Below are positions 1,239-49,994 of a stretch of DNA of 64,000 bases, in pieces. The position numbers and the translations under genes are program-made. Where the stretch lies: the NCBI RefSeq assembly GCF_964204645.1, contig NC_134026.1, positions 8,951,950 through 9,015,949 on the forward strand, written 5' to 3'. The notes beneath the pieces were generated by a model, which did not search any database, was not told where the DNA came from, and was given only the letters and a program-made list of their open reading frames with translations. This DNA is from Tubulanus polymorphus. Taxonomy: Eukaryota > Animalia > Nemertea. Position 1 is the first letter of the stretch, and the number at the start of each line of letters is the position of its first letter.

Positions 1239-11557
<10,319 letters not shown>

Positions 11558-21580: not shown

Positions 21581-22429
21581 CTGAAGAAGGTGTAGTTTCA
21601 TTTTCCGAAATTACTGTTTTATTAAAAACAAGCTATGGAACCTTATCAATTAAAAAAGCAAAACATCTATGGGATCATATAATTTTCGGGGATTATTTAA
21701 ATAGAGGGTTTTCAATGTTTGATAGACAAACTGTGGGGATTTCTTGGGCTTCTTAGGCAAAAAGAAACATAAGTATTAGTGCTGGGTATGATAGAAAATT
21801 AAGAGGAGTAGGTAAATTATTTACGTACAAAAGATTTCAATCATTGAGTTTGTCATTTTCTGATGAAGTTAAATATTTAAATGATATTGAAAAAATGTTT
21901 GAAAATAATTTCTGAAATTTAAGAATTCTGGTTGAAATTATAAATTTTATCATTGCAACGGGATTAAAAAATCTTCAGAACTTATTAAAAACAAAGTGAT
22001 CCACCAAGGCAGTGAGATTTCCTCCTTTATGAACATCTTCTCGCCTGGATAACATTGTTGAGGGTGTACGGAACAATCACACTCTCATCAGTAATATCAA
22101 GGAGAACCTGATCAATATTTCCGCATTTGCTGGATAGAATAGGGTAGAGTGAGTTCCTCAATTCTAGGGTCGAATCCCATTCATATTCAATCTCGGCAGG
22201 TCGTATCTGAGCATCATTGTGCACTATGTAATCATAATAATGATGTTTAATTTTTGTATAGCACTTAACAAAAGTGTCTCTCATGCACTTAGATGTTTAT
22301 CTTTACCATACGCAGCCTGGGGTATGGTCATCTTTCGGGTCCCACCATGAACCCAAAGTCGCAGGGGATTCTCCATTCCCTGAGGAGTATACTGCTGTTC
22401 TAATATTTGTTTCTTATTTTATTTTAAAG

Positions 22430-23380
22430 GTTACAGTATGTATAGAAGAAAATGACTAAGTGTCGGAGATATGGTTCAGGCGTTAGATGCTGATGATAGT
22501 GAACTGTCGGAACTTGATGATGGGAGTGATTCAGACGATGATGATTCTGATTTCGCTGTTATCATTAACAATCAGCATTCCCAGGACGATGACAATGATG
22601 GTGAAGATGATGAGCCGCTTGCTTATTTTGTTGGTACGCCTACCACGACCACTATCAACAGAAATCAGATGACGGTGAAATGGAAAAAAAAGAATTTGAA
22701 CCTTCAAATCATAACTTTACGGGTCCTGGCCTCACTCGTCCAGATGCTATAAAAACGCTGCTTGAGTATTTTAGACAATTTATTTGAGGTGACATGTTGT
22801 ATATGATAGTTGAGATGACAAATATGTATTCTTTACAAAAAAGGCAAGAATGCAAACATGAACAAAAAAGAGCTTGAGATGCTAATGGGACTGTTTTTAC
22901 GAATGGGGCTTATGATAATGCCCGGCGTACGGTCGTATTGGGAAATTGACACGCGCTGTTCCTTGAATGCAGATGTAATGAGCCGAGATCAGTTTAGGCT
23001 GCTGGTAACTGTATCACATTTTGTGGACAACGAATCGGTCACTGACGTAGTGAAGCGTGATTAAGTATGACCACGTAATAGGCCATGATAAGACCAGGAC
23101 TGAATAAAGTCAGGGAGCATTGCTTGGAGGTTGAACCAGGGAAAAAAATTTGATAGACGAAATGATGGTCGCTTTCAAGGGCAAATATAGCTCACTTAGA
23201 CAATATATCAAGAATAAACCCCATAAATGGGGTCTAAAAATTTTGGTACGCGCCAGTATTTCTGGAATTGTGTTAGACTTTGATGTCTATCAAGGTGCAG
23301 GAGGCGCTAAAGGTGAGCTAGGTGTAGGAGGTGACACTGTAGTGAAATTGTCAGAAACTCTGCCAAAGAACCAGAACTAT
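22430..23380 (+). mobile_element. piggyBac transposase pseudogene
   Basis: Acidic N-terminus, RSYWE, VMSRDQF, IDEMMVAFKGKYSSLRQYIKNKPHKWGLK...DFDVYQG; stops and frameshifts; 3'-truncated. Confidence 0.9.
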
Positions 23381-23398
23381 AAAGAACAGCTGACAACA

Positions 23399-24270
23399 AG
23401 TTGTATTATAGTTGGTCATAAAAAAATAAAAAATAAATTCTCGCACGCACGAATTTATTTTTCATTTTTTACTCACCCGCCCTCTCCACCTTTAACCTGA
23501 ACCAACTATTATACAATTACTCTAATATTTTTATAAATGAATATTTTATATATGAATAACTTCTAAAATCAATTTTGATAAAAAATTTGATATTAAAATG
23601 GAAGCAAATAAGAAGTACTACTGTCCAACAGAACAAACACAAACCATCAATATTACAAATAATACTGGTGTTATAAATATATATCAGTAGACGTGTTGCA
23701 AATGTAAAATTAGTAAGCCATTTACAGATTATTATAAACGTAAGATTGGTAAAGATGGTTTACGACATAATTGTAAAACTTGTATTAAACTAAATACAAA
23801 GCAATATCGAGCAGATAATAGAGAACATTATAATGATTATATGACAGAATATATGAGAGAAAGATATCAAACAGATTTAAATTTTAAAATGAAAAGATGT
23901 CTAGGTAATAGATTATCACAATTTTCAGTAAAGAAAAGCATTCAGTTACACTATCTAATTTGTTGGGTTGTTCAGATGAATTCTTAAAATCATGGATTAT
24001 ATATCAGTTTGGCGATAAAATGAATATGAATAATTATGGTGATTATTTCCAGATTGATCATGTATTACCATTATCTAAATTTAACATGAACGATGAACAC
24101 AATCAGAAGTTAATATGGAATTGGAAGAATTTAAGACCTCTTGAAAAGATATGAGTAAATCTGACAAACTAGATTTACAGTTGTATTTAGATCAACTGGA
24201 TAAAGTAAAGACATTTGTTGAATTATGGAACAATAGTCCAAATAATGAGCCGTGTACTGAGACTTTAATC
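23399..24270 (+). mobile_element. Hairpin terminus plus fused zinc-finger start / HNH-type nuclease pseudogene of the hairpin-ended element family
   Basis: Partly deleted terminal hairpin (23399-23521), MEANKKYYCPT joined to EQTQTINIT..., then FQIDHVLPLSKF...WNWKNLRPLEK. Confidence 0.75.
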
Positions 24271-25415
24271 AGCGCTTAGAATAAGAGCTCGATAACACCC
24301 AGCCTATATAACTACTAGCTCTAGTTTGTTTATCAAAACACCTGTTGCCAGCGTTGCCATAGCGGCAGACGATGCCTGTTGAAACAGGACGTATTGCACC
24401 ATACTGAATCACCGCAGACATATACTGTTGAGACAGGATGCATTGCAACATACTGGATCGCCGCACCCGCACCTATCCGCGGCACCTATCTTTAGGTAAA
24501 GAAAATGTCATACTGATCAAGAAGTCAATTGTCTTTTGCAAGTCAAACACCGGAAAGTGAGGAACCAGAAACGATGGATGTTAACACACCATCTCAAGAG
24601 ACTGTAAAAGATATAGACGACAAAAATATCGAAAAGCTTAAAAAACATTTGGATTACTATAAACAATTAGTAACAATTGTGGACGAAATAATAACAACTA
24701 AACAATCAACGATTCGAGAATTGCCGAAAATACCAACTCCGAGTTTAAAAACATTATTAGGAATTAAAGACAATTGAAACATTGTTATCGAAACAAACAA
24801 ATCATCTTTGGGATTTTATAATCTTTGGGAATTAAAGGGTTTGTTCTTTATCATTCTATCCAAACTGTATCCAAACGGGGCTCTCGATCTAGGCTCCGGC
24901 TTGTCAGTTCGGCCATTTTGCAGCAGCAGGAGCAGTAATAAAGCGACAGCAGCAGTACAGAGCATACATTGAAACCTACAAAACTACGACTTGAACTACA
25001 ACTTCAATTCGGTCTAAGTGAGGACCTAAGACTATTCCCGACAAAACGTAGTATTAGCTTACATCTTCAAGAATGGGCTGATCTCAACTGGCATAGGGAT
25101 AAGTTTCGTCATCAATTCATTGCAAGTATTGCACCAAGTGTGGAGGGGTCTTTTCATCAACGGGGTATAGAGATTGCGACTAGCAGCACAAGCAGATTTG
25201 GTGAACACTGAGCTGGACGCCAAACAATTCCTTCAGGGTGAGGGTAAAGGTATAAAAGTCATAGATGCATAGGATTTCTCTCTCGAAACACAATTAGGAG
25301 TTACAGTTTACAGTTCTAAATGTAAGTACCGTTTTTGTTGTTATCAAGACGTCGGGAAAGGTGTTACTTAATATGTTTAAGTGCTGTAATTCATATTTGA
25401 CAACTTGAACAATTT

Positions 25416-26090
25416 GAAAATGTCATACTGATCAAGAAGTCAATTGTCTTTTGCAAGTCAAACACCCGAAAGTGAGGAACCAGAAACGATGGATATAAAC
25501 ACACCATCTCAAGAGACCGTAAAAGAGATAGACGACAAAAATATCGAAAAGCTTAAGAAACATTTAGATTACTATAAACAATTAGTAACAATTGAGGACG
25601 AAATAATAACAACTAAACAATCAACGATTCGAGAATTGCCGAAAATACCAACTCCGAGTTTAAAAACATTATTAGGAATTAAAGACACTAGAAGCACATT
25701 GAGTGGTTATGAACACCACGAATACTTGAAATCAAAATTAACGGATTATAGAGATTTGTCAAACTTTCAAGAAATAGATGCGCATTCATTTTCGGAAATT
25801 AGTGATTTATTAAAATCTGAGTATGAAACATTGTTATCGAAACAAATAAATCATCTTTGGGATTTTATAATCTTTGAGAATTAAAGGGTTTGTTCTTTTT
25901 CATTCTATCCAAACTGTAAATATTTCATGGACTACTTGGGTTAAATAAAATATATGTATTAGTGTTGAGTATGAACGAAAAATTAGAAGAATTGGAAAAT
26001 TATACTCCTTTAAAAAATTTCAATTATTGGGTTTGCCATTTGCTACCATTATTAGTCATTTGAATGAAAATGAAAAATTCTTTGAAAATT
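25416..26090 (+). pseudogene. Uncharacterised repeated ORF ('ORF A') of the hairpin-ended element family
   Basis: KLKKHLDY...LWDFIIF...YERKIRRIGKL; homologues at 21620-21940, 24499-24870, 34288-35037 and 50708-51365. Confidence 0.65.
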
Positions 26091-26769
26091 ACACCACATA
26101 AACTCACAGGTTGTCACAATGAAAAGGAAGATAAAACTGTTTCACAAGTAAGAAATTTGCCTGTGCTTCATTTGCTATTTTCTAACGCTGCTGATTTGAA
26201 GAAGACAAGAGGGAATGAGTTATCTAAAGCACCTATGATCGAGGTTCTTCCTCTTAAACTAAATAAAGAATCTTGGGATTTGGTTGCGTCTAAAAACACA
26301 AGAGTTTTGATAGACCATAAAAAACGTGCTTCACCGCATAAGTTTATTTGTCGATTTGTTGGCCTCTAAGGCTGACGCATCAAAAAGTGAGCTCACTAAA
26401 GAGAATCTGCGCATTATCATTTACCGTCACCTACTTCTAGGGTTATAATATCAGTTCCTACTATTCTAGGTATAACTGCGCTTGCTATTTTTAATATATA
26501 TTTTTTCATGATAAGGTATAATCCGGGGGCAAATTTTTTCTATAGCTGGCTTGTTTTATAGCATGGAATAAATTGTTTTGGGTTGTAGCGCTGTGCAGAT
26601 TTTCTTTTAGATATCTATGGAATTTCGATCGGGGACTATGGTTGATCAAGAACCAGATGGGGAACAGTTGCCAAATCCTGTGGACATCTCTTTTGTTTGA
26701 TCAACTACGCATTATTTAGATGGGGGGAACTTCTGCGGGTGCACTCTAAATGATTCCAAAACATATCTT

Positions 26770-26940
26770 ACCCCGTCAATTCATCTTCGGTGTACAAGAC
26801 ATTTTAAGAAAAATCTATATTCCAAATTAAGTAGCTTAGATTTGAGTTAAAACATTTCAAATGAAATCATTGATAGTATTTTTGGAAATGATGACGTTAA
26901 TGGATTAATTGAAGCAACCTCTCCAAAGGGTTGTGAGTTA
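26770..26940 (+). mobile_element. MULE transposase fragment
   Basis: HLRCTRHFKKNLYSKL...IIDSIFGNDDVNGLIEA (CxxH motif), same type as 62480-62890. Confidence 0.5.
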
Positions 26941-27219
26941 CGTTTTCTAGCTATCTGTTGGCTGGGATGAACTAGACCACTCAGAGAAATTTTCTGATTT
27001 CATAAAAATAATTTAACAATGATACACCAGGGACAGTGAAGATAAATCGTAAGAAGTCGTCAACCTTAGAGATTGACACTAGGCTCGTTGTACGAAAGGA
27101 GCCCCTAACCCTGGTGGCACGGAAGTGGAGCCACCAACGACGGCAGCAGTTGGGGTTGGCGGAACCTCCACCACCACCACCAGCAGCTCCAGAGAACATC
27201 GAACAACAGCCTCCGAGTG

Positions 27220-27650
27220 GCAAAAAATCGAACGCATTGACATACATACTTTCGAACTAAGTGATGACCTACGACTATTCCCGACGAAACGTGGTATTAG
27301 TTTACATCTTCAAGAATGGGTTAATCGCGACTGGCATAGGGATAAATTCCGCCATCAATTCATTGCAAGTATTGCGTGTGTGTTATTATTACTATCATTA
27401 TCATTAGTAATATCATTCTACCACCTCTCATTTTTAGATGACTCAAAGACAAATTGACAATTGAAAATTTTAATAGGTTCAGTAGAAGGTCAACCCCTGA
27501 GGGAAAGATTTCCTTGCGGTCAGTGCAGGGCAATACTTGCCCATAAAAGATCCCGATCACACCATGTGAGGCGCGTATGCACTAATTTCAAACCAATATG
27601 CACCAAGTGCGGAGGGGTCTTTTCGTCAATGGTGTATAGAGATCATCACT
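27220..27650 (+). pseudogene. PC4-like ssDNA-binding fragment followed by C2H2 zinc fingers (Maverick/Polinton-associated)
   Basis: RIDIHTFELSDDLRLFPTKRGISLHLQEW resembles the PC4 core; FPCGQCRAILAHKRSRSHH...CTKCGGVF. Copies at ~25010, ~28465; finger region also at 46030-46200 next to the packaging ATPase. Confidence 0.6.
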
Positions 27651-29892
27651 AGCAGCACCAGCAGCTCCAGTGAACACTGAGCTGGATGCCAAATAATTCC
27701 TTCAGGGTGAGGGTAAAGGTATAAGAGTCTGCCCCTGCACAATCAATGCGATCACGATCAGTCTCATCCTGTGCTAGAGAACTTTTTTTCAACAATCACA
27801 AGGATATTCTACGCTTCTGTGATATAGGGTACCAGGAATAAGGCCTATTCGAGGGCGCTCTCGATCTAGGCTCCGGCTTGTCAGTTCGGTCATTTTTCAG
27901 CAGCAGGAGCAGTAATAACGCGACAGCGGCAGTACACAGCATACATTGAAACCAACAAAACTACGACTTCAAACCTGTGCAACTTTTAAGATACTGGCTA
28001 AAATAAGTAATTGCCACAAGACTCTAACCACACCTATCTATTCCCAGTTAACCTGCCTGTTACCTTATCATTCTATGAGAATATGCCAATAAACCAGAAA
28101 CGGGAGCTTCTTGATCTGCAATCCAACTCATCCAAAATCCACCGGGTGGTACCACCCAATATCCAGATAAGAAAGGACAAGTGGGACAAAGTAGCCGACA
28201 CAAAGGAAAAATTACCGCCAGTTTTCGGAAAGTTTCTGTGAAAGGGCACAAAGATGTCGAACTCCTTGCCACAAAGGCAGAAGTGCTGATGTCATCTGGC
28301 CGCAAAATACAATAAAATTCATTTCTGGGTATACCTCAATCAGATCTAATAAGAAGAAGCGTGTGTGCAAACGGCTGTTAAACTGGACGAATCTAAAGAA
28401 CAATAGGAATATTTTAAAACGTATAAAGGCACCATGTCGGCAATTTAGTATTTGCATGTGTCAACGACTATTCCCGACGAAACGTGGTATTAGCTTACAT
28501 CTTCAAGATTGGGCTGATCTCCACTGGCATAGGCATAAGTTTCGCCATCAGTTCATTGCATGTGGGTTATTACTATTATTATTATCATTATCATTAATTA
28601 TATCATTCTATCTCCTTAAATTTTTAGATGATTCAACGACAAATTGATGAGAAACTTTTACTAGGTTCAGTAGCAGGTCTACCCATGAGGGAAAGATATA
28701 AAAGTTGCCCATAAAAGTTCACGATCACGCCATGTGAAGCGCATATGCACTAATTTCAAACCAATATGCACCAAGTGCGGAGGGGTCTTTTTGTCAACGG
28801 CGTTTAGAGATTGCGACTAGCAGCACCAGCAGATCTGGTGAACACTGAGCTGGACGCCAAACAATTCCTTCAGGGTGAGGATAAAGGTATAAAAGTCTGC
28901 CCTATTGCGCAATCAATGCGATTGCGGTCAGTCTCATCCTGTGCTAGAGAACTTTTTTTCAACAATCACAAGGATATTCTACGCTTCTGTGATATAGGGT
29001 ACCAGGAATAAGGCCTATTCGAGGGCGCTCTCGATCTAGGCTCCGGCTTGTCAGTTCGGTCATTTTTCAGCAGCAGGAGCAGTAATAACGCGACATAAGT
29101 CATAAACATAAGTCGTTATGTTTGTGCTTTGATTAGTAATTGCCACAAGACTTTAACCACACCTATCTATTCCCATCCAGTTAACCTGCCGGTTTCCTAA
29201 TCATTCTATGAGAATATGCCAATAAACTAGAAACGGAAGCTTCTGGATCAGCAATCCAACTCATCCAAAATCCACCAGGTGGTACTACAAATGTGAACTA
29301 ACTGAGGTATGTAACATTAACTCTATTACATAAATTGTCATGGTCATCTCTGCATTTATATTTGTTTCTCCTCTGTACTTGCAGGGAGATGTACCTCAGC
29401 CGGTCAAAGATTTGGCGCCAAAATATGATGAAAAATCTCCGGTAGCTGATACGCGAATTGCTCGGGGTTTGTACATTTTTTTTTTCAAACTTTGACATGA
29501 AATATGATTTGGAATCCGGTGTTTTTATTTCGAATTTCTCAGGCCATTTTCTTATTTTCACAGGTTTCAATCTCAAATGCTCATGACATGTTCTATCATG
29601 ATGGTGAATTTCAATATTTTCATATAATCTGATATATGATCTGCCTAAAAGAGGAAGGAACACAGATTTCAATCTTGAGAAAAAGGAACAACATTCCACT
29701 TGTGTCATGATGTAGCCTTTTGGCTATAAAACCCGGAGACATAGGAGCCTTTCTCGCTCTTTTGGCTCTCGTTCTCTCTCTGAGCTCTATAACTCTCTCA
29801 GTATTATATATAAATAAAACTTAACATTATCATAACATCGTTTGTATTTGGCATTCCTGGGCTAGGACTCTGTATCAACTCTGCACAGTACT

Positions 29893-30910
29893 CTATGGAG
29901 GTACACAAATGGCTAGCCGGCATGCAGAACCTAATTGATTGATGGGTATCTGTCGATCAATTCAGAACCATCGCACATAATTTCCAAAACAATCGGTACG
30001 ATCCGAGATCTTCTTTCGATACATTATCCTGGATACACGATTTCATATTCGAATCCAGGACATTAATATCAAACACAAAACGGTCTCTACACAAGAACTG
30101 ACAAGGCAGTATACATAATTGTCAAATTCCCGATATCCGAAACCAGTACCATTTTCAATGTTTATTCCATTTCTGCAATGCCTGTGCCGGTCAATGCGTC
30201 CTCCCACAATTGCACATTGATCAAAAACCACCCTGGCTATATCGGTGTATCCCAATCTGGTGATTTTTATACAGAATTTAATTCCAAAGAATTCTTACTG
30301 TGTGAAGGAAAGGGAATTGAAGTCTGCCCCACTGCACAATCACTGCGTTCACGAGCCGTGCCGTCGTGTGCCAGCGGACTGTTCTTTAATAATCACAAAC
30401 ACACCATGCAATTTTGTGATATAAGGAGTCAGGCTTGTTTGAAGCTCGACCTCGGTTCCAGGTCATACCTGGTAAGTGGATGAGAGGCCTCTTGGCCTGC
30501 CCTGGTAAACCTGCACAAGCCATCCTTTCTTGCCCCATGTGTCTGATACGATTGCCCGGCGGTTGCGGAATCACATTGGCCACTTCAAAATTCTCGCATA
30601 AATAAGTAGTTGTCATAATTCCACCACTACACCAATACACTCGAACCCTGTTAATCTCCCGGTGATATTATCATTCTTTAAACATATGACCCTCGACTGG
30701 AAGGGGAAACTTTTGGATCCTGCTACACACTCATTGAAAATACACCAGGTATTCTCCGAAATTAAACTCATTAGGGATAAATTGGAGAATGTAGCCCACG
30801 TAGACCGAGGATTCCAGACAGATTTTAATAAGATTGCCGCAAGAGGGCACAAGAAAGTAGAACTCTTCGCCAACCAGGATGGTGCACTGGCTGCCCCGCT
30901 GCTGAAGAAG
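29893..30910 (+). mobile_element. Gypsy env-like ORF3 (degenerate)
   Basis: Cys-patterned ectodomain (MPVPVNASSHNCTLI...PGYIGVS...CEGKGIEVCP...SCASGLF...C); homologous sequence at 40880-41260 lies downstream of the integrase-chromodomain stop and a splice acceptor (TTCTCTTACAG, ~40251). Related pieces at 27670-28160 and 28840-29280. Confidence 0.65.
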
Positions 30911-31432
30911 TACCCCGATTGTGGGTACTACTTCCGCAGCATGAGGTACCATATCTCTTGTGTGCATCTGAATCATGCTTACACACAATAATAGAAAGAA
31001 TTGATTAATGTTCGAACCATACGTGATCATCGCGATAGTGTTTGTTTAGTTAATAACTTGAAGTTTCATATACACGTGTGCATACACAGGATTTGGTCAA
31101 CATATTTCTCTCATGAATATAATTCAGAGTTTTCGGTTTGTGAGGTAAATGTAATTTCCATTTTTTGTTGTTATTATGAAGTCGGGGGAAAGGGGCTACT
31201 TAGTATGAAACCTCGAAATATTTTTAAGTGCATTATTTTTTATTTGGCAACACATATATTGATTAAAGTTCGAGCTATGATTATTGATATTACTTCTTCA
31301 GCCTCAACACCTGAGAGTTTGCTATTCCAAAGAAGTGGCACTCATCAGAAGAGCATTCAAAGGTTTCCGCCAGGGTATTGATGATATCCGAAAAAATCGT
31401 CGGGTGAAACCCTGAGATAAAGGCTCTGGTCT

Positions 31433-31625
31433 GAGACTGAGGGGCAGCTGGCTTGTGTGAGGGCTGACCAGTCGACGGTGGAGGCTGAGGGGCTGCTGGC
31501 TTGTGCGAGGGCTGACCAGTCGACGGTGGAGACTGAGGGGCAGCTAGATTGTGTGATGGCTGACTAGTCAACAGTGGAGACTGGGGGGCTTCCGCCGTGT
31601 GCAAGAGCTGACCAGTCGGCAGTGG
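31433..31625. repeat. 48-bp minisatellite (second array at ~42508-42745)
   Basis: Unit GAGACTGAGGGGCTGCTGGCTTGTGCGAGGGCTGACCAGTCGACGGTG; a remnant also at ~32081-32130. Confidence 0.9.
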
Positions 31626-32080
31626 ATCTGATAAATCAAAGTTCTGTGACTGGCCAGGTAGTCAGTACTGGCTGATGATTTAGATTTTTTCGATGACGTG
31701 GTCTTCTTGGTATAAAACCTAGAGGAACACGACTCTTGCTCTCTTTTACTCACACCGTGGCAGTCATCAGGTCAGACGTTAAGATCCCATGAGATCACCT
31801 AGTTTAGTTGGAAAATTTGCATATATAGAGGTGATCGATAAATGGTGGAGGTCCCAGGCACACAACGACAACGACAAAACCAAGAATAATAACAGAACAA
31901 GAGGAAAGAATCAAAATGCAACACCAATATCCACTGAAACCAAACAGCATCAAAGAACGGCATCAACGGAAATAATTTTTTTGAAACGGCAGTGAAACTA
32001 AGTCACCATTATGAATGTGCCAGTACTTAATTATGATAGTCACAATCGGGCTTCATCTCCAGACTTTTTGTGCCAAATTC
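31625..32080 (+). mobile_element. Partial Gypsy LTR, tRNA-Ala-like PBS, leader and gag start
   Basis: Homologous to the LTR at 38045-38398; PBS TGGTGGAGG at 31843; ATG 32011 MNVPVLNYDSHNRASSPDFLCQI matches gag starts at 38550 and 42987. Confidence 0.8.
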
Positions 32081-32130
32081 ACTTGTGAGGGATGACCAAT
32101 CGACTGCGGAGACCAGTCAACAGTGGAGAC

Positions 32131-32896
32131 TTTTCCTTAGGGAAAGATTGGAGGCTAGTGAACAGTACATCCGAATTCTTGAGAGGAAAGTTTCTTACAT
32201 CAAGTACATTGTCCAAGCTATGTCATCTTTGTTTGTGCAGATTAACATGTTTAGGTTCTTTAAGGGATATAGAGCCAAAACAGCTCTTATATTCTTTTCA
32301 TTGATCTGTCATGGTGCCATTTACGCAACAGCATGTGAAAATGTACTACAAGCAGACACCATAACTGGAGAAAAGAGTCAACAAGTGTGGATACATATTA
32401 TGGATGAGGAACAATGTGTTAACATAGGATTACAGGCAGCCAGGAGACCTATACAATTTCATCTTGGAGAAGGACGGATAGCACAGGGAATAAAGTGTGA
32501 ATACCTGATACCAATGAAACTCCATCATATTGTTGTCTCTGAGTCAGCTTGCCCGGAGGAGAACCCAAGATATAGCACCATAGCCTCAGTATTTGTCACA
32601 CTGGAAGTGTGCTAAGGGGATGGGATAATGGATGCTATATTCTTGGAACTGGCCTCGTGGAAACCTGTGTCAACATAGCCAGCCACTCTAAAGAGGAGGC
32701 GAATTACGCCTGGGTTTATTCGATGAATCAGGTGGAGTTCGTCGCTGAATTAACAGTGGGAAAGGACTTGACTAAAAGCCATGCCACAATGATGGGAAAG
32801 GTTGAAGGACCTGGAGGATAAAAAATGGCACACTGTTAAAAAAACAGCTCTGGAATCTGGACATTTGAGGGAGAAGTTTGTAAAGTGATAGAGGGT
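32131..32896 (+). pseudogene. E: Endogenous flavi-like virus fragment: M C-terminus / signal sequence and N-terminal half of envelope glycoprotein E
   Basis: Hydrophobic KTALIFFSLICHGAIYA then Cys pattern C-x26-C...SESACP... and, after a frameshift, ICHTGSVLRGWDNGCYILGTGLVETC (32591-32668), matching the flavivirus fusion loop VCK...DRGWGNGCGLFGKG..VTC. Confidence 0.88.
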
Positions 32897-33260
32897 AGTA
32901 ATAGGGATTATACTCAGACTTGGGTTTCACTATCCAACTGAGTCTCAACTGATACATGGGACGCTCGAATTTATTTTTCATTTTTTACTCACTTGCCCCT
33001 TCAACCTTTGATATGAACCCCTATTATCCCTATTACTCTTATAATATTCATATATATGAATATGAATAACTTCTAAAATCAAATTTTAGTAAAAAAAAAT
33101 GGAGCCAGAACAATCACAAACTATCAATATTACAAATAAAACTGGTGTTATAAATATATACTACAAGAAATGTTCTAAATGTGAATTAGATAAATTAGCT
33201 ATAACAGAATTTAGTAAGCGTGAGATTAGCAAAGAGGGTTTTCAATATTGCTGCAAAATT
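32897..33260 (+). mobile_element. Damaged hairpin terminus plus truncated CxxC/HNH ORF start
   Basis: AGTAATAGGGA at 32897, partner arm ...TATTATCCCTATTACT at ~33037, then MEPEQSQTINIT...CSKC. Confidence 0.7.
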
Positions 33261-33269
33261 AGTATTAAA

Positions 33270-33940
33270 CTATTACTCAGGAAGATAAATATAATTATGA
33301 AGTACATTATAGAATGTTGAAGTTTTATTTGAATCAAGGAATGGTTCTAAAAAAAGTACATAGATATATTTCATTCAGTCAATGTAAATGGTTAGAAAAA
33401 TATATAGATTTTAACACCAAACAGAGAACTAAAGCTAAAACTGTTTTTGAGAAAGATTTCTTCAAACTAATGAATAATGCATTCTATGAAAATATTAGAA
33501 ATAGAAATGATATTGAGTTGGTTAGTAATGGTAAAAGAATTAGACATTTACAAACATATCCTAAATTTATTGGTAACAGAATATTTGATGAAAATTTAGC
33601 TGCAGTTAAAATGAGAAGAACTTCTATGAAATTTAATAAACCAATTTATATTGGAGCATCAGTTTTAGAAATATCAAAGCTATTGATGTATGAATTCTAT
33701 TATAACGTATTACAACCTCATTTAGTAGAAAAGCATATAGAAATCTTACATGCTGATACTGACAGTTACATATTAAAGATAAAAACTAATAACATAACAG
33801 ATGATTTGAAAACATTAAAACATCATTTTGATTTCAGTAATTCCTTTAAAGATCATGAATTGTTTAACAATGATAATAAAAAGGTGCCTGGTAAATTCAA
33901 AGATGAATTAGGAGGTGAAGAAATGATAGAGTTCATTGGA
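33270..33940 (+). pseudogene. Protein-primed family B DNA polymerase, C-terminal fragment (Maverick/Polinton type)
   Basis: YIDFNTKQR...FEKDFFKLMNNAFY, KPIYIGASVLEISKLLMYEFYY, DTDS, KKVPGKFKDE. Confidence 0.92.
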
Positions 33941-35329
33941 AGCTGTAACTATGTTATTTACAACAATTGGTTTAGCTATATCAAATTCATTTATGAAAAA
34001 CATGATTGTTTTCAATTGTAAAGAATTAATTAACTTCATCATAAAGAACGTCTGTTACCATCCAGGCAAACGTACAGAAATAATCAGTTTGGTCGAACGT
34101 GCGCCACGTCGGCAGTTAGAAATCAACATTCACATACATAGTACATATTGGATATTCTCTCTCAAAACACAGTTTACAGATCTAAATCTAAATTTAAGTA
34201 CCGTTTTTTGTAGTTATTATGAAGTAGGGAAACCTTTAAACATATTTAAGTACAGTAATTCATTTTCACGACATCTTTTAGATTAAAATGGAATACAAAG
34301 ATCGACCAGAAATTCCAAGACAACCATCGGAAGAGGAAAAAATGCTGCTGGATAGTTATTCACAGGATTCAACAGAAATGTAGGAGGAAGGAACTCAAGT
34401 TATTGACAATCAAACTATAAACAAATTACAAAAACATTTGGATTATCGTAAAGAAATGACGAAAATGTTGGGTGACGTAATTCATAATAAAAAATTACCA
34501 CGCGAACCACAATTACCAAAATTACCAACGACAAATCTGAAATTGCTGTTGGGGATCAAGGAATCTGAATTGCTGTCGGGACTCGAGAAATTGAAATGAG
34601 TGGAGAAGAGTTGAATAAGTTTTAAAAATCAAAATTAATTATTGAAACAGAACATTTAAATTTCCCAGAAATACGAAGTGAAGAAGTTAATTCATTTGAT
34701 AAAATTACTAATATATCAAAAATAAGTTATAAGACATTATTAAAAAGAAAAGCAAATCACTTATGGGATCACATCATTTTCGGGAGTTATTTGATTATAG
34801 GGTTTGACATGTTCGATAAAAAAAACTGAGGGGATTTCTTGGGGGGCTTGGGTAAAAAAGAATATAGAAATCAGCACCAGTTATGAAAGAAAACTGAGAA
34901 GAGTGGGAAGATTGATAGAATATGAAAAATTCCAATTATTAAGTTTAACATTTAGTGAAGTTGTCAACTATTTGCCAGAAATTGAAGAAATGATTGAAAA
35001 CGATTTAGTAATTAAAGAATTCTGGACAAAAATATAAATTATAACGCTGAAGATCTTTGTAATATAGATATCAAAAAATGTATTCTTGATTGTGTATATC
35101 TGCTTTAATATTGTATTGTTATGCATTAGTCGTTCGGTCGTTGTTGATGGCGACGGCTGTTCTGTATTGATTGGTTACTGTTCTATGTTTGAATGTTGTA
35201 GTTTACAGAATAAATTATATAATTGGCGCATGCACAGAAGCAAAAGCGGTCTTCTAGGACCGCTTTTCATTGTTCTATCTTCGATCACTAAAATTTGCAT
35301 AATAAATATATGTGTTTATGAAATTTGAA

Positions 35330-36420
35330 AGATCCTTATGCGCAAGGGTGCAACGAAAACTGTCAAGTCAATTACAGGATTGGCTAGGGTAGATTTTGAT
35401 TGTAATCTTTGGGAGAGGTCCAAGCATAACAATGTTTACCTGTTGCTTTTAAAGAATGGCAATGATTGGGAACTCAAAGTCATGCCAGAAGATCCAGCAA
35501 CCTTCTTGGACAGCCATATACAACAGAGATGGGAGGCATGGTACACAACCCTGAAAGAGATTTGAAGTGGGGAGAAGCGAAACCCAATGCTGCACATTTC
35601 TGGATTAAAACCATGGAAGGTAAGGATTATGAGATCAAACTTAAAACAAAAGAATTGTTAATGAGTGCTATCCAACAGGACTATGGTAAAGTCACAATTA
35701 AGGATTTGTATGTGTCTGTTGAGCTATCATGAAGACTAGGCATTAAGCCTACAAGATTGGAACTCGCTTCGACAACGAGTTGTAAGGGAGTGCCCTCAGT
35801 CAGAAGAAAAAGAGAGTGAAACTGATCAGATTCGTTTAGAGGATTTGGGACAAGAATCAATCCAGTGAATATGTATATGAAAAGGGACTACTATGTGAGA
35901 GTGGTGTACTATGCTTTTCCTTCTGGTGCTTTCTATGGACCTATGGATTATGCCGGGAGTAAGTATTCAGCGTCAGAGGTTGAGGCAGCTTATAGGACCC
36001 AGGTGCGTGGCAAGTGGGACATATATGGATACAACCACAATCATGTTTATAGTAACACCACCATATCATTCGACGGAAATTTTAGAGTGTATAGTTACAA
36101 CAACACTGAACAACCAAGAGGTGTTGTTGACAAACAGGGAGACCACTGTAAAGTCACATGGAAGGCAAACAATGGAACAATATCAAGTTCACACACTAAG
36201 GAACAAGTAGTTAGCATACAGAAGTTTGTCAAGGAGTTTGATGAATATGCTAAGCGTAACTATTATTATGAATGTTGAGCTTGAATATTATGCACCAATT
36301 GGCAATTTAACAAGGATGGGTGTCAGAATGAGTAAGATCAAAGTTGGTAGTGAAGAGTGGAAAGTGATTAGACCATTGAAAACCACTTTTTGTGAGACAG
36401 ATTCAGATTGTTTAAACTAG
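35330..36420 (+). pseudogene. NS1: Endogenous flavi-like virus NS1 (frameshifted)
   Basis: Ordered NS1 landmarks across frames: LKVMPEDPATFLDSHIQ (cf. YKFQPESPSKLASAIQ), RECP...IRLEDLG...NMYMK (cf. ECP...VEDYGFG...NIWLK), FYGP...YRTQVRGKW (cf. LAGP...YHTQITGPW), NTTI, VIRPLK (cf. MEIRPLK); ends TAG 36418-36420. Confidence 0.75.
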
Positions 36421-36772
36421 TTGAGATGGGACCACTACCGTCACCAAAAGGTGGTGCAAATGCTAAAGAAAGGAACATGGTAGCGGAGGCTAGGTGACGC
36501 GCTGGGATGGTTGTTGGTAATATAGTGAATAAATAGTAATATAGTGAAAAAACATAGAAAATGGCACTGAATGAATAATCGAACCAAACACTAGACTACA
36601 TAGAATAAATCTTATAGGAGCTAGTGGTCGCTATAGTGCAAAACAAAACTGTTCCCTTCCGGATATATAATCCGAATACACTAAGAATTCTGGTACAGCG
36701 TTTAATTTGGTTAATTTTGGTTTTGGAATGCGATTCACTGATCTTGCAGATCAGGCAGATGTGTTGATGGCA

Positions 36773-37700
36773 AGAATGTACATTTCGGGTGCGCCTAAGA
36801 AAATAACTGAAAGAGCCAAAGTACTGAAATCATACGTGAACACTATCATCAGGAAGAGCCACGAAAAGATCCACGATGCAAACTAGACCCTCCAGACTAT
36901 ACTGAAACCATGCAGAACCTTGGTAGGATAACAATATCATGTGGAAATTTTTGGAAGGACTCAATTCTATTATAGGGTTTGTCAACAATTGGACGTTGAC
37001 AGACACCAGCGCTGCAGGCACCTTTTCTGTGTATAAGAAAAAGGTGGACACAGTCACACCAGCCAACACCAACACACCAACAAACTTGAGGAAGAAGTGT
37101 GGGACACGATATCTGATGGAATTACCATGGAGACTTTCTCCATGCTCACCTTCGAGGAAGGAGTTGAGAGGCTGAAGAAGAAAGCAGCTGGTGGACTTCT
37201 TGATAAGAATTGGACAGAGGATCCTGAACATGAGTAAAGTTGAAGAGGAAATAGACAAGATTGTTTCTGGAAGACCTAGTAGAGGATGGGTTAACACCAT
37301 GGGGAAAAGAGAGAAGAAGAAGACTCCATGAAAAGGGAGTAGGCTGATTTCCTTCTATGACATAACCATACAAATTTTAGAACAGATGGTCTTCGGACCC
37401 CTCATGGACCATATAACCAGGAGAGAGAACAACCTTGTAGGAGTGGGACATATGAACCCAATGGATTATTTCCAACTCATGAGTGAGGAAGAACTTGAGT
37501 CAGGTAAACAAATCAACAGGGATATCGTATTCATAGCAGATGACACAGCTGGCTTTGATACCAGAATCAGAAGGAAAGACTTGGAAGAAGAATGTAGATT
37601 CATCACATCACGCCTCAATGGTAAAGCTAAGGATGTAGCCACAGGTCTATACCGCATGTATTCAAACCACATAACTCTACTCAAACGTCATAGAGCTGGT
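36773..37700 (+). pseudogene. NS5: Endogenous flavi-like virus NS5 fragment (end of methyltransferase through RdRp motif A)
   Basis: RMYISGA (cf. EMYWVSGA), LTDTSAAGTFSVYKKKVDT (cf. MTDTTPFGQQRVFKEKVDT), AAGG, NTMGKREKK...SRLI (37299), IADDTAGFDTRI (37536; cf. ADDTAGWDTRI); stops/frameshifts; truncated before GDD. Confidence 0.93.
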
Positions 37701-38044
37701 ATACGCGGAGGGTGACTTCGTTTGGCTTCACAATTCTAAAAACATTAAGGGCCTGACTAAGAAACTACTTCATCCTTATCATGGGCCCTATATTATTAGT
37801 AAAAAGGTTTCACCCGTAAACTATATTCTAAAGACCCATGCTGGTAGAGTATTAAGGGCTCCAGTTCATACTAATCGTTTAAAGATGTATACCCACACTG
37901 GAGATCGTACAATTGGGTTGCCCATAATTGATAACGACGATAAAGACGATAATGATGATGATTTTTCAGACCCGGACTATGATATTTTCCCTGTGGAATG
38001 TATTCTAAAGAAACGCACGCGTAAAGGAGTTCGTCAATACCTTG
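37700..38044 (+). mobile_element. Gypsy integrase C-terminus (GPY/F module) and N-half of a chromodomain
   Basis: GDFVWLHN...KKLLHPYHGPYIISKKVSPVNY...VHTNRLKMY, acidic linker, FPVECILKKRTRKGVRQYLV; chromodomain resumes at ~40123 (VKWAGDFPHSWEPANNIL). Confidence 0.85.
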
Positions 38045-38398
38045 TGATAGTTGACTTGGGTTAATTAGATATACATATATAGCATATCGAAATTCGTAGA
38101 CAATACTGTTCCGTATGACGAGTGCTCAGGACACATGATCTGATAGGTCAAAGTCCTGTGTACTGGTTGTATGGTCAGTCCTGGCTATTGTTTTAGATTT
38201 TTCGATGACGTGGTCGTCTGGTTCTGCTGGGTATAAAACCCAGATGCACACACGACTCTCGCTCTCTCTTTTGTCTAGCTCTCTTTTGCTCAGACCTTGG
38301 CAGCCATCGGTTCAGACGTTGTTTAGATCCCATGAGATCGCCTAGTTTGTTAGATTTATTTTGGAGAAGTTCCATCCGTATATAGAGGCGATCGATCA
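38045..38398 (+). mobile_element. Gypsy LTR (354 bp) followed by tRNA-Ala-like PBS
   Basis: TGAT...ATCA ends, internal TATAAAA, PBS TGGTGGAGAA at 38400; same start TGATAGTTGACT follows a purine tract at 44252. Confidence 0.82.
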
Positions 38399-38549
38399 AT
38401 GGTGGAGAACCCGCGCATCCAACAACGTAACCGATAAGAACAGAACGAGTAGGAAGCAACACCAACATCGACTGAAACGTACAGCTTAGAAAACGGGATC
38501 AACGGACGAAATTTTTTTTTGAAACGAGAAATCTGAGTAAGTCATCAAA

Positions 38550-40100
38550 GTGAATGTGCCGGTATTTAATTTAGAAAGTGATAATAGGGCTACATCTACA
38601 GAATTTTTGTGCCAAATTAGCCAATTAAAGGCACAGGTTGCTACTCTGGAAGCGGGAACAACGGTCGCTTCAGACGGGCTAGCTTTATCTCCCTTACTTA
38701 ATAAACTACCTATCAAAAAGGCATCATTAACTGTGGCGCATTCAGCAAATGGAAGCCCTATATCTTTAGGAACGGTAGATATACCTATTCAAATAGGTTC
38801 TGAGCATTTTTCTCAAACAGTATTTTTGCACATCCTATACAACAAACCTTGATATTAGGATTAGATTTCATGAATGAGAAAAGGGTTGTATTAGATTTCA
38901 GTTCAGGAAGCATGTCTATAGATAATGGTCACCCGATAAGATTACAAAATCAAGTTGGCTTAGGTCATCAAGCTAAAGTGAGAGCAGTTAATGAAATAAT
39001 AGTACCACCAAAATCTCAGTACGAAATAAGAGGTAAATCAAATTATCTTTCGGATAATAATCAGGTTCTTTTGGAACTAGATCGCAACCTTGGATCGCGG
39101 TATAGTATTTACAGTGATGATTCAATAGTAGAAGTACGCAATAAGTCAGTACCGTTAACGCTATATAACTTTACAAATGCCCCGATAAAATTGCATAAAG
39201 GCACCTCGTTAGGTTTTGTAACGTTGAATTATATGATAGTTTCCGAAGCTAATCAGTCTAAAGTCCACAGGGGTGAACAATCAATGAACCCTGGAACTAG
39301 ACAAGCTAGAGTCTCTGTGGGTGAAAAGTGTTTAGAAAATGACACTCAAAATGTCACTTTTAAAGACATCAATATTACTAATACAGGTCTCAGTCCAGAA
39401 GGTAAAATTAAATTATACGATTTATTGATAGAATTCAAAGATATTTTTGCGGATGAAACGAAGGAATTATCAAGGGCCAAAGTACCCTTGGAGGATAGAA
39501 TACACACTGGTTCATTTCCCCCAGTTAGATTGAAACCATATAGACCCGCCGAATTAGCCGATCAGGGAATCATTCGGGAATCAACTTCCGAATGGGCGTC
39601 TCCTTGTATACTTGTACGAAAAGCTTCAGTGAACCCCGATAAGACGTCAGCCTACCGATTGGTTCATGATTACCGTCAGCTAAATAAGGTAACCAAAATT
39701 GACACATTCCCTGGACCTACATTGAATGAAATATTCACTAATATCGGTAAAGGGAAAGGCAAAATATTTACAACTCTAGATTTACATTCGGGATATTTTC
39801 AGATTCCTATGCATTCCGATTCTATAGACAAAACAGCTTTTGTTTGCAACAGCGGAAAGTGGGAATATCTAATGATGCCGCAAGGGTTAGGATTGCCCGC
39901 TACGTTTTAAGGGGCCTCCTTCACGACATTTGTGAAGTATATTTTTAGATGATATAATCATATACTCTGAGAGTGAGGAATCTCTTAGAGTGAGCTCATC
40001 TTAGATTAGTGTTTGAAAGGCTACGTGAAGCGAATTTGAAATTGAAACCAGTTAAATGTCATGTCTTTTCTGATAACGTTAAGTATTTAGGTTACTTAGT
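38550..40100 (+). mobile_element. Gypsy gag start, protease C-half and reverse transcriptase (internally deleted)
   Basis: ILGLDF, ESTSEWASPCILVRK, YRLVHDYRQLN, TLDLHSGYFQI, KTAF, MPQGL, FLDDII, LKLKPVKC. Confidence 0.92.
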
Positions 40101-42986
40101 GACGGAATTTCTGATTGCTACCGTTAAATGGGCCGGTGACTTCCCGCACTCCTGGGAACCAGCCAACAATATCCTAGATTGACGGCTCATCTATGATTTT
40201 GAGACGAACCACCACTAAATAAATAATTGGATCGATCTTTTTCTCTTACAGGTTTCTCTTTTTTGTCATTCCAGAAGATGGATACAGTCACTTTAGTTTT
40301 TCGATTTGGTTAATCCACTTTTATTTTTCAACGAATTCTCTGAACAGGTACAATCAAATACGCACCTGATCCTCCTGGTTTTAATTGGGTTCATCCTTAT
40401 CCGATGTGCTATATCCACATGAAGTAGTATGAGATCCTTGCTACGGAATCAACGCAGGGGGTGTTCATTAGTTTTTAATTTATCATCCCTGGACGACAGC
40501 ATTAATATAGTGATACGTTAGTTGCCAGATTGCCCTCTTTCCTACTTTATCAGTGAGGTCCCAAAGAGAATTTTAATCATGGTCATGTCGAATTAGTTAC
40601 CTTATCTAATTACCGAATGGCATGAACACCACTTGGTGACCGCCGGATCGAATACACTTCGTGTGATAAAACTGAATAGGTCCACGAGAATTTCATGGAT
40701 CCAATATTTTAGAGTCTCGAAAGTTATTAACGCAAATTTTGACACCTACCTATACCTGGTGTGCCCAGATGGTAAGATAATACCGGTACCCATAGCACGT
40801 GCTGTTTAAAAATCGATGATACTAGATCTACTTAAATGCTCTATTTTAGAGTCTCAATAAGTTTCTATTCATAAATGGATGAATGATTTCAGCGACGACC
40901 CATGTCTACTATGCTACCTCCAGGTTCTGTTGCGGAATCACATCGGCATTCCCGCCAAAATAAGTAGTTGTCATAAATCCACTACTACACCAATATACTC
41001 ACACCCTGTTAATCTCCCAGTGATATTATCATTCTTTAAACATATATCCTCACCTAGAAGAGGAAACTTTTGGATCCTGCTACACACTCAACGACAATAC
41101 ACCAGGTTGTCCTCCCTGAAATTAAACTCATCAGGGATAAATGGGAGAAAATAGCGCACGCAGACTGAGGATTCCAGACAGATTTTAAGAAGATTGCTGC
41201 AAGAGGGCACAAGAAAGTAGAACTCTTCGCCTCCCAGGCGGGTGCACTGGCTGCCCCACAGCTCAGCTCAAACTCTGATTTCTTTATCCCTGGTGTCTCT
41301 CAATCGCAATTTCTTAGCTATCTGTCTAAGTATTTTTTCAACCATTTGTGTCGGTTTCTTGCTTTGGACAAGGAGAGCAGGTGCCGCACTTTTACCCCCG
41401 TGGCATCAAGCATAACTTTTCCCAGCTGAATATCAAAGACTATGGCGTGAATGTGATATATTTTTATTGATGTACAAGAAACCATTTATCCTGACAGAGG
41501 AGAGAATTTCTGTTCTCCGGAATATCTATCTGAGCGGGTGCACTTTGAAGCTGAATGTCAAGTCCGTGGGGTTCTACATTCCCAGCATGTTCACCCTCAT
41601 CAAGCTCTTGTGCAATTTGGGGATCTTTTCTAGCATCATGGACCAGGACCTGGTGGCCTTCATCAAGTGCTTTCCGCTGAACATGTCCCAGCGAAAATTT
41701 ACATGTTTTAGTTCCCAAGAGAAGATGGAGTGAAAACGAGGCTCGCAAATTCTACACAAAACTGCACAAATATGTAAAGGAACAACAGATGCCTCTAACA
41801 AGTATCTTTAAGGATATGGTGAATGATCTGCCCAAAAGAGGAAGAAACACAGAATTCAATCTTGAGAAAAAGGAACAGCATTCCACGATGTCCTCCAAAA
41901 TATAAATCTGAAACTCGTGTCATCAAGTACTATGGGTTGATTGTCATGATCGAGCAACTGAACAACTACATTATCCTGGATTCACGATTTGATATTCGAA
42001 TCCAGGACATTAATATCAAATGTGAAACATTCTCTACACGAGAACTGACAAAGCAGTATACATAAGTGTCAAATTCCCAATATCGGAAACCAGTACCATT
42101 TTTTATGTTTATATTAACATATTTTTCTCTCGCAATATAATTCGGAGTTTTCGGTTTGTGAGGTAAATGTAAGTTCCATTTTTTGTTGTTATTATGAAGT
42201 TGGGGGAAAGGGGCTACTTAGTATGAAACCTCGAAATATTTTGAATTGCATTTATTTATATTTTGCAACATATATATTGATTAAAGTTCGAGCTGTGATT
42301 ATTGATATTACTTCTTCAGGCGGGACACCTGAGAGTTTGCTATTCCAAAGATGAAGTGGCGCTCATCAGAAGAGCATTCGAAGGTTTCGCCGGGGTATTG
42401 ACGATATCCGAAAAATCGCCAGGCGAAACCCTGAGATAAATGCTCTGGTCAAGAAATACCACGATGGCCTAGAGAAACCCATTGTTCTGATATCAGAACA
42501 GCATTGAAGACTGAGGGACTGCTGGCTTGTGCATGGCTGATCAGTCGATGGTGGAGACTGTGGGGCTGCTGCCTTGTGCAAGGGCTGACCAGTCGACGGT
42601 GGAGGCTGAGGGGCTGCTGGCTTGTGCGACGGCTGACCAGTCAACGGTGGAGACTGAGGAGCTGCTGGCTTGTGCGAGGGCTGACTAGTCAACAGTTGAG
42701 ACTGAGGGGCTGCCGCCATGTGCAAGAGCTGACCAGTCGGCAGTGGATCTGATAAATCAAAGTTCTGTGACTGGCCAGGCAGTGTAAGATTATTTTTTGG
42801 AGAAGTTCATTAATAGAGGTGATCGATCAATGGCGGAGAACCCGGGCAACTTTGACAACTATAAGGAGGAAAAGTAAGTGCAAAAGCTAACGACAACAAC
42901 AACAAACTCGGGAGAATTCAAGCGGGAACGAAAGACTCGAATATTACTTTTGGACGTGAAGAAAAAATTTGAAGTAAGTCGATAAA

Positions 42987-43820
42987 ATGAATGTGCCGGT
43001 CTTCAGTTTAGAAAGCAGCAATTCTCAAGCTACATCATCAGACTTAGTGAGTAAAATCAATCAGTTACAAACTCATATTGCCAATCTGGAAGCGGGGACA
43101 ATGGTCACCCCAGACGGGCTAGCTTTTGAGCCTGATATTCACTTTTCAGGGGATGCAGATGAGGATATTGCAGAGTTTGTGAGGGATTTCCAAATAAGAG
43201 TTGAGTTTGGGGGGTGGAAAAAGAGTAAAGCGCTGGACACTTTACCTATTTACTTGAAAGGGCGTGCCCGAGAGCACTACTATCATTTACGGTCAAACCC
43301 TCCGCTTGATACGGAAAATAAGATAAAAGAAAGATCTTTAGAAGAAATCTTAGAATTATTCAAAGAAAAATTTAAAAATAAAGATATGCAATTTGTAACA
43401 CAGCAACAGTTCTACATGCTAAAAATGAACGAAGGCGAGTCACTTGACTCGTACATTCAAAGATTATTATACTTGGAAGGTTAACTTGAAAAGTCAGTTG
43501 AGGACCTGTTACAACTATTTCTGCATGGTTTATTGCCCTCAACAAAGGCATTTGTGATTGGGAAATGCCCAATAAATTTTGATAAGGCGATCGCTAATGC
43601 CAGGTTGTCACAAGAACTAGAAAAAATATCGCCCGCACAGGAATCAATCAGATCATTGAATATACATTATTCCCGTCAGATAGCCTTAGAAGGTCTAAAT
43701 GAGAAATTGACTGAATTATTGCAATTACAAAAGGGTAAAACAAGACAAAACAAATCTCGACCGATTAGATCATCGGATGGTGGACCATATTGCGAGTATT
43801 GTCAAACGGTAGGGCAAACT
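42987..43820 (+). mobile_element. Gypsy gag (frameshifted)
   Basis: After LTR end and PBS at ~42830; FSGDADEDIAEFVRDF, LKGRAREHY, GESLDSY, FLHGL, degenerate knuckle CEYCQTVG. Confidence 0.85.
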
Positions 43821-44229
43821 AGGCATGTTCGTTATTGTGTGCGAGTGATACCGATTCGTGCTACGAAACTTTCTTCCTATCTATATAACTTAATTGAATT
43901 AATTGTTAATGTGCGTTCAATATAGTGATGACCTTTTGTAGTGCGTGTTGTACGCTGAAATGCTGCAGAAGTGTAAATAAAATAGTAAAAAAATAATTGC
44001 ATATATAATAATGCATTCATGAAATGAATAAATAAATTGCCATGTATTATAATAAGTGAATGATGATATAAATTATGATAATATAAACTACTGATGATTA
44101 TTATGTTGAATCAAATTCCTTAGAATGCTGTCGTATCTCTATTGTATAGCTTGTATATGGTTGTATCTTATATTTTATCTGGTAGAATAAAGTATTGGTC
44201 TGGGTGGTTGCCATTTGTTTTTCGGGGCG

Positions 44230-45509: not shown

Positions 45510-45960
45510 CTATCGCTGGGAAATATTCGTGTACGTAATCGACATTTTGTCCAAAGTTTGTGGTTTGAAATCGCAGAATAGATACCCACGTGGAGAAATT
45601 GAGGTGGCATCCCTAAAAGCTTCCTCGAGCGATTTGCCTAACCCGGGACTGCATCGCTTAAGTTTCACATGAAGTCTATACCTAGGATGCTTGAATAGAA
45701 CTATATAATGTATGTTTAATGATATAGTTCGGAAATGAGGTCCTCTTGGGAAAAGGGTTTGTGATATGAGAATCACTTGAAGTTTCCTGTGATGAATGCC
45801 ACGCATAAAAATAGTCTCCAATAATTTAGGGTCACACTCATTCAAGATATTGTCTAGAATAAGTAGTTTTGTTGTCTCGGAACACGCCAAACTTTCGTTA
45901 ACTAAGTTACTAACTATTACACCATCGATACGTTGATAATGCCAATCGTTTTTAAAGATT
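45510..45960 (-). pseudogene. Maverick/Polinton A32-like packaging ATPase, C-terminal part
   Basis: Degenerate Walker B LLILDN, FMRGIHHR...ILISQ.LF, RTISLNIHYIVLFKHPR, AFRDAT..PRGYLFCD. Confidence 0.85.

Positions 45961-49897: not shown

Positions 49898-49900
<3 letters not shown>

Positions 49901-49991
<91 letters not shown>
49901..49991. repeat. (TA)n microsatellite
   Basis: Directly visible. Confidence 0.97.

Positions 49992-49994
<3 letters not shown>

Follow-up and report, generated by a model that had tools for sequence, protein, structure and literature searches.

The window analysed here, a stretch of 64,000 nucleotides from the nemertean Tubulanus polymorphus (contig NC_134026.1 of assembly GCF_964204645.1, positions 8,951,950 to 9,015,949), carries a decayed flavi-like viral element between positions 32132 and 37694. 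Read from left to right on the plus strand, on which all its features lie, the element comprises pieces of the envelope glycoprotein E, of a protein that follows E and of the polymerase protein NS5; it is interrupted by an AT-rich insert and bordered on both sides by Gypsy-type retrotransposon sequence. The initial annotation, made from the sequence letters, had described an endogenous element of divergent flavi-like origin whose pieces keep genome order (M/E, NS1, NS5), broken up by deletions and by a mobile element of 2.4 kb and neither pesti- nor hepaci-like. This description was borne out; all motifs quoted for it are present on the plus strand, and profile searches confirmed both E and NS5. 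Its NS1 piece and its orthoflavivirus-like source had to be revised, and the Gypsy long terminal repeat (LTR) frame around the virus had escaped it.

The NS5 piece (36853..37694) extends from the NS5 linker through the fingers and palm of its RNA-dependent RNA polymerase (RdRp) to just beyond the DDxAGxD motif, in four blocks of shifting frame. Pfam Flavi_NS5 matched 37332-37712 with E 4.3e-9, past the cut-off, and a PDB search returned flavivirus NS5 as top matches (best E 1.1e-9); all 42 PDB sequences matching at E <=1 were flavivirus or jingmenvirus polymerases. Two relatives served for comparison throughout, namely L070, an 11,784-base contig from a metagenome scan with two overlapping open reading frames (ORFs) of 1419 and 2386 residues, and P0027, a single ORF of 3101 residues bearing E, NS3 and NS5. 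The NS5 piece matched L070 with E 8e-45 and corresponds to residues 2419-2735 of P0027.

Ahead of the insert lie two pieces of E in different frames. The first (32283..32612) contains the membrane anchor that precedes E, seen as a hydrophobic stretch at 32280-32343, and N-terminal E. Profiles of 62 full flavivirus genomes, searched against the 1278 six-frame chunks of the window, matched its N-terminal side (32283-32558) with an independent E-value (iE) of 0.0025; the alignment of 32283-32612 with residues 254-326 of P0027 was equalled in 0/200 shuffles, and a phmmer search of PDB with the N-terminal E ORF gave no match below E 0.4. The second piece (32588..32896) has two stops and carries the fusion loop that the initial annotation had recognised: the orthoflavivirus-type profile of the same 62 genomes matched 32576-32785 with iE 1.2e-8, and this bin was matched by 51 of 62 flavivirus polyproteins taken from viral contigs. 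An E profile built from L070 and P0027 reached iE 6.4e-12 over 32588-32896, a block on which Pfam Flavi_glycoprot stayed under its cut-off (E 0.0019). The E alignment of the two relatives was itself matched to orthoflavivirus E by hhalign (probability 96.6, P 5e-10). The element shows an NS5-type RdRp and a class II E glycoprotein upstream of non-structural genes, both features of flavi-like clade I (the Flaviviridae in the proposed narrow sense), and its viral origin is near certain.

As judged from alignment with the relatives, the 2.4-kb insert splits E, and E resumes to its right (35326..35789, two frames with stops), where NS1 had been read from the motif 'PEDP' onward. The similarity of 35326-35789 to residues 482-585 of L070 ORF1 was reached in 0/1000 shuffles, while 35436-35624 aligned with E of P0027 (residues 473-534; 43% identity, E 6e-8) and matched the two-relative E profile with iE 4.6e-9. 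On this profile, 32540-32899 covers positions 78-195, 35329-35472 positions 196-244 and 35457-35627 positions 243-296. The 'PEDP' block (35329-35472) is weak when taken alone, with 2/300 shuffles against E, equally 2/300 against NS1 and 277/1000 against L070; it is read as E because it exactly fills the gap in the E profile between the flanking E blocks. The former NS1 piece is mostly E, and only 35844-36411 lies after it.

This latter stretch (35844..36411), which occupies the NS1 position, is part of the protein following E in the unsegmented members of the clade described below, and its homology to NS1 is unproven. A profile of the post-E regions of P0027 and L070, which resemble one another (0/100 shuffles), matched 35844-36257 with iE 5e-4 and 36322-36393 with iE 1.4. 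Position-restricted tests of 35844-36411 gave 9/1000 and 6/1000 shuffles, and 36211-36420 against L070 gave 0/1000. The region of the motif YRTQVRGKW matched an orthoflavivirus NS1 profile weakly (1/200 shuffles; iE 5.8 in the window-wide search). Orthoflavivirus NS1 profiles miss L070 and P0027 and likewise three divergent full polyproteins (P0046, P0050 and P0078); hhalign of the relatives' post-E region with NS1 alignments gave a probability <=1.2, and a phmmer search of PDB with 35826-36275 found no match below E 0.4. AlphaFold models of the post-E region were too poor, with a mean predicted local distance difference test score (pLDDT) of 36.8 for L070 alone and 41.7 for the P0027 stretch with a four-row alignment; a fold search with the P0027 model, of a quality too poor to judge NS1 either way, returned nothing at E <0.001 (best Z 4.5). 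As NS1 markers, 'PEDP' and 'ECP..LEDLG' were abandoned, the former because it fits the E gap and the latter because its frame matched none of the relatives compared.

To the left of E, an open frame at 32132..32282 that is in frame with the M/E block possibly represents the M ectodomain; like the viral blocks it is poor in CpG (1 in 151 bases), and it did not match P0027 (470/1000 shuffles). From the prM side only the anchor before E was matched, the best hit of the C-prM profile (iE 2) lying elsewhere in the window, and none of the orthoflavivirus profiles of NS1, NS2, NS3, NS4 and C-prM fell below iE 0.16 among the six-frame chunks. NS3 and the methyltransferase, which L070 and P0027 both carry, were not found in the window (best iE of the clade profiles 1.9 and 11), and the end of E with its anchors and the RdRp past the first catalytic motif are also absent from it. 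The structural and NS5 pieces are separated by a spacer of 433 bases (36420..36852), in which comparison with P0027 or L070 gave nothing significant and the clade methyltransferase profile reached iE 11.

Ten blocks of the element are collinear with P0027. Those of the left part correspond to its residues 254-326, 336-434, 481-534, 896-942/822-975 and 985-1015, those of the NS5 part to residues 2419-2441, 2476-2515, 2522-2566 and 2579-2735. Together they comprise 849 codons, interrupted by 6 stops, and the frame changes 7 times from block to block; the element is unable to encode a working protein set. The observed/expected ratio (o/e) of CpG is 0.29-0.33 in the viral blocks and 0.81 in the spacer; 146 other windows have a median of 0.79, and the ratio is as low in 2 of them. 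The low CpG of the viral blocks is likely inherited from the virus, because the Gypsy neighbour shows an o/e of 0.89.

A search of 1.84 billion representatives with the NS5 piece yielded 63 matches at E <=0.001, six of them at 1e-30. Names were obtained for 10 of the 63 and include Candiflavili virus (DAZ87825.1), Fluviflavili virus (DAZ87938.1) and Photeros flavivirus. In a tree of the 162-residue piece with 72 rows (8 of the 62 flavivirus loci were used, and P0040 and P0064 were dropped as too short), the element fell into a clade of 15 rows with both named flaviliviruses (support 99/94), along with a dozen unnamed metagenomic sequences. Orthoflaviviruses and their kin formed a separate clade (100/100), as did the jingmen-like sequences (99/96), anchored by P0021. 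A second tree of 28 rows and 596 columns agreed, with a Shimodaira-Hasegawa-like approximate likelihood ratio (SH-aLRT) of 98 for the flavilivirus clade, and nested the element at 92 with P0026, P0003 and L070 among unnamed sequences. Over the NS5 piece the element is nearer to unnamed sequences (P0025 67% identity, L070 56%, P0027 50%) than to Candiflavili virus (48%, 73/152) and Fluviflavili virus (44%, 59/134), and its identity to orthoflaviviruses is about 35%. We consider it very probable that the source virus belonged to the flatworm 'Flavilivirus' clade (lineage Ii). The orthoflavivirus-like source of the initial annotation was abandoned, as NS5 groups with the flatworm flaviliviruses in both trees; the NS5 phylogeny it had suggested produced a clade apart from both orthoflaviviruses and jingmen-like viruses.

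Flaviliviruses come from triclad flatworm transcriptomes and are listed as two segments in Table S3 of PMC9241645, where segment 1 represents the non-structural (NS) part and segment 2 has envelope-like matches. PMC11760431 treats them as lineage Ii ('Platyhelminth and environmental sources') beside infectious precocity virus (IPV) and the jingmenviruses, and its Table 1 gives three coding-complete genomes on record with the genus not assigned. IPV, described in PMC8269200, had been guessed as the nearest named relative from the two-ORF layout of L070; it was rejected, the named matches being flaviliviruses, and none of the 10 matches that were named, out of 63, was recognised as IPV.

Within the flavilivirus clade, whose named members are annotated as two segments, L070 and P0027 are both unsegmented, and L070 (3-11329) has a slippery-type heptamer at 4229. 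Some near NS5 relatives look broken: L069 (571-2235) has NS5 in two ORFs, the likeness of P0025 fades at the end, and the P0029 cluster consists of 15 short pieces on contigs of 0.9-7.4 kb. These may be further endogenous copies of the clade or assembly errors. In the 72-row tree, P0063 and P0075 form a long-branched unnamed NS5 pair beside the flavilivirus clade, and the P0053-P0085 clade (11 rows) contains stand-alone NS5 proteins of ~960-1090 residues, apart from the jingmen-like clade. P0021 had no match in viral contigs.

The virus is framed by Gypsy sequence of the same strand. On the left, 31625..32079 contains the 3' part of an LTR-like sequence, the site TGGTGG at ~31843, which we take to be a primer-binding site (PBS), a leader and the first gag codons; this gag start is also common to 42987. 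A scrap of a 48-bp repeat that otherwise lies upstream of the LTR-like copies marks the left edge of the captured sequence (32111..32131, 95% identity to unit 31562-31582). On the right, the viral part stops near 37693, where the C-terminus of a Gypsy integrase starts (37693..38061; SH3-like with a weak chromodomain; Integrase_p58_C E 2.1e-6, SH3_Tf2-1 E 2.7e-5, Chromo E 0.24), and another copy in sequencing run X2 matches only from 37693 onward. A second LTR-like copy with a PBS-like site and gag start (38137..38618), homologous to 31625-32079, opens the next element of the tandem array and leads into gag, protease and reverse transcriptase (RVT_1 E 2.2e-9 within 38804-39907). Both copies show LTR-like sequence, TGGTGG site, leader and gag start in that order, and 336 of 433 columns (78%) are identical. 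The virus occupies the gag-pol place of one tandem Gypsy unit, with the gag start on its left and the integrase end on its right; viral and LTR-element sequence thus adjoin in genomic DNA, as characterises a retrotransposon-captured non-retroviral endogenous viral element. Remnants of an F-type envelope gene were found at 30067-30480 (Baculo_F E 1.4e-7).

The Gypsy LTR frame points to template switching as the mechanism of capture. A Gypsy-type reverse transcriptase would have changed over to viral RNA as its template and then returned, the resulting hybrid cDNA passing into the germline; a single event of this kind is proposed, on one unsegmented viral RNA resembling L070 or P0027. NS2-NS4 and other parts would be missing because of template jumps or of deletions that came later, and a Polinton-like element would later have inserted in E, followed by decay of all parts. 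With the least certainty, we suggest that the locus might be a graveyard of transposable elements (TEs) resembling a PIWI-interacting RNA (piRNA) cluster, in which the viral piece would serve only as a small-RNA template. Virus-LTR hybrids were shown experimentally in mosquito cells, and a flavivirus piece with LTR and gag flanks lies in a piRNA cluster, as described in PMC6797480. Taken as a whole, the account of a flavilivirus-clade copy captured in a Gypsy element by template switching, inserted in the germline and decayed seems to us likely.

Several observations speak against this account. The LTR-like copies are only 82% identical and the right one brings a PBS and gag of its own, hence they are not a matched pair; dating from them (Kimura two-parameter distance 0.20) was dropped for the same reason. 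The array is heavily rearranged, and DNA rich in TEs often shows such flanks. In the runs examined the insert is not spanned by any single contig or read, and its right joint is documented by contigs from 35295 that include only ~28-31 insert bases. Precisely where the structural pieces give way to NS5 lies the spacer of 433 bases with its host-like CpG, and Table S3 of PMC9241645 gives the named flaviliviruses genomes of two segments. Finally, the NS5 tree draws on only 162 residues of the element, and since IPV, the tunicate virus, lineage Ih and the X2 elements are not in the trees by name, the placement is anchored by two named sequences.

The strongest alternative is that viral cDNA made by another reverse transcriptase was end-joined into a decayed Gypsy array, the flanks being incidental and adjoining the virus after later deletions. 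The window is almost wholly mobile DNA, neighbouring Gypsy copies have large deletions themselves, and the scrap of the 48-bp repeat at 32111-32131 is misplaced, all of which would suit such an event. We nevertheless judge it unlikely, as the virus lies on the Gypsy strand between gag start and integrase end in replacement of the missing gag-pol, and no flank duplication was listed.

Less likely still are two captures, or one from the two RNAs of a two-segment flavilivirus, joined at the spacer. The spacer is unassigned and its CpG o/e differs from that of the viral blocks, and flaviliviruses are described with separate segments for the non-structural and envelope-like parts in PMC9241645. Against this, the element nests among the unsegmented relatives L070 and P0027, and its pieces keep the polyprotein order on a single strand, so that we regard an origin from two RNAs as rather improbable.

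The presence of the element in chromosomal DNA was examined in sequencing runs, with copy number and orthologous sites judged from read depth. It occurs in four runs of one study. Contigs of run X1 cover 31629-32990 without a difference (depth 51) and 35295-37727 with differences in 3 letters and 2 gaps (depth 39), and contigs of a second sample (runs X2 and X3) cross the left joints. In run X5, a genomic whole-genome shotgun (WGS) run of another study of which about 12 in 100 were read, raw reads fell on every viral bin at ~4-20-fold and on the insert's left part at 250-560-fold. The viral blocks are present at single-copy DNA depth in runs of two studies, and no RNA run is among those listed as carrying the element. 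The window differs from runs X1, X2, X3 and X5 by single letters at 35828, 36096 and 37231; the element is polymorphic among samples. A chimeric assembly or a contaminating RNA virus, which could be argued from the facts that run X1 may be the sample behind the window and that no record covers the entire stretch, is largely refuted by the stops and frame changes throughout, by contigs bridging the gag-virus, virus-insert and virus-integrase joints and by the reads of the independent WGS run on all viral bins.

The insert within E (32897..35320, GC 0.29) is a high-copy sequence, with a read depth of up to 87,000 in run X1 as against 39-51 on the viral blocks. Its start at 32897, as given initially, was corroborated, since a terminal hairpin arm shared with window copies near 49520 and 56960 begins there. 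Its ORF, which we take from its motifs to be the remnant of a Polinton-type B-family DNA polymerase, had no match in Pfam, PHROG, PDB or viral contigs. More pieces of this high-copy Polinton-like family lie at 21585-26089, 45513-46001, 48275-52704 and 55787-56937; besides hairpin ends they carry a domain of endonuclease VII (E 6.3e-7) and two ORFs, one with a zinc finger and one that is, presumably, ATPase-like. Region 26000-44000 is a tandem same-strand Gypsy array with F-type envelope remnants at 27271-31000 and 40929-42112 and the 48-bp repeat ahead of the LTR-like copies at 31433-31626 and 42508-42747, and it resembles a one-strand TE cluster. Elsewhere in the window we found remnants of a reverse transcriptase of the long interspersed nuclear element (LINE) type (12026-13232, minus strand; RVT_1 E 6.2e-16) and of a Mutator-like transposase (61229-61948, plus strand; E 6.4e-26). 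Rfam and ARAGORN over the window gave nothing, and phage records gave no match.

Compared with known systems, the element shares its supported NS5 clade with Candiflavili and Fluviflavili virus but is broken DNA with E and NS5 in one stretch, whereas these are exogenous and, in Table S3 of PMC9241645, annotated as two segments. L070 and P0027 match, in order, its blocks of E, of post-E sequence and of NS5 and differ by their intact frames, with identities of 50-56% in the NS5 piece and ~20-45% in E. Orthoflaviviruses share with it the gene order, motifs of NS5 and a class II E whose fusion loop is of the GW type; they differ by the low NS5 identity, the separate clade and the lack of a clear prM or NS1 match. 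Jingmenviruses have 4-5 segments. Their E is described in PMC11410658 as being without the fusion loop that the element has, and the element's NS5 lies outside the jingmen-like clade. The piece of cell fusing agent virus (CFAV) in Aedes, as presented in PMC6797480, is likewise a non-retroviral RNA virus within a Ty3/gypsy LTR and gag in TE-dense DNA, but it stems from another viral lineage and the present element is far more decayed. Divergent flavi-like fossils, many of them outside arthropods, are the X2 and tamanavirus elements (fish, copepod, insects) and those of jellyfish and priapulid in PMC9752770; there the X2 elements are described from NS5 only, as jingmen-like, and they may overlap with the flavilivirus clade.

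The initial annotation had also suggested an extension of the host range beyond arthropods. This argument is weaker than stated, as PMC9752770 reports flavi-like elements from 36 animal species, with jellyfish, priapulid, fish and sea slug in its Table 2; such elements outside arthropods are already known and hence not new. The mobile elements and the CpG level of the host would suit an invertebrate. No published element of the flavilivirus clade was found in a search that covered mainly titles and abstracts, most subscription papers lying outside it, and the discoverers of the flaviliviruses found none in flatworm genomes according to PMC9241645. We tentatively raise the possibility that this is the first germline fossil of the flavilivirus clade, from a non-flatworm invertebrate and from one unsegmented RNA. 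On the same tentative footing, with L070 and P0027, the clade beside the jingmenviruses might span genomes of three layouts (one ORF, two ORFs with a frameshift, two segments) that have an E with the fusion loop and, following it, a protein whose divergence keeps it from being read as NS1, and so present a living series for flavi-like segmentation.

As a useful fossil of a thinly sampled lineage, the element preserves genes for structural proteins, unlike most flavi-like fossils, and is relevant to the question of whether the clade's segmentation is genuine and a derived state. A copy in the germline connects the clade with an actual host, and once orthologous loci are found it would give the clade a minimum age. 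The capture mechanism, known from mosquitoes, would here extend to another virus clade and probably to another host group.

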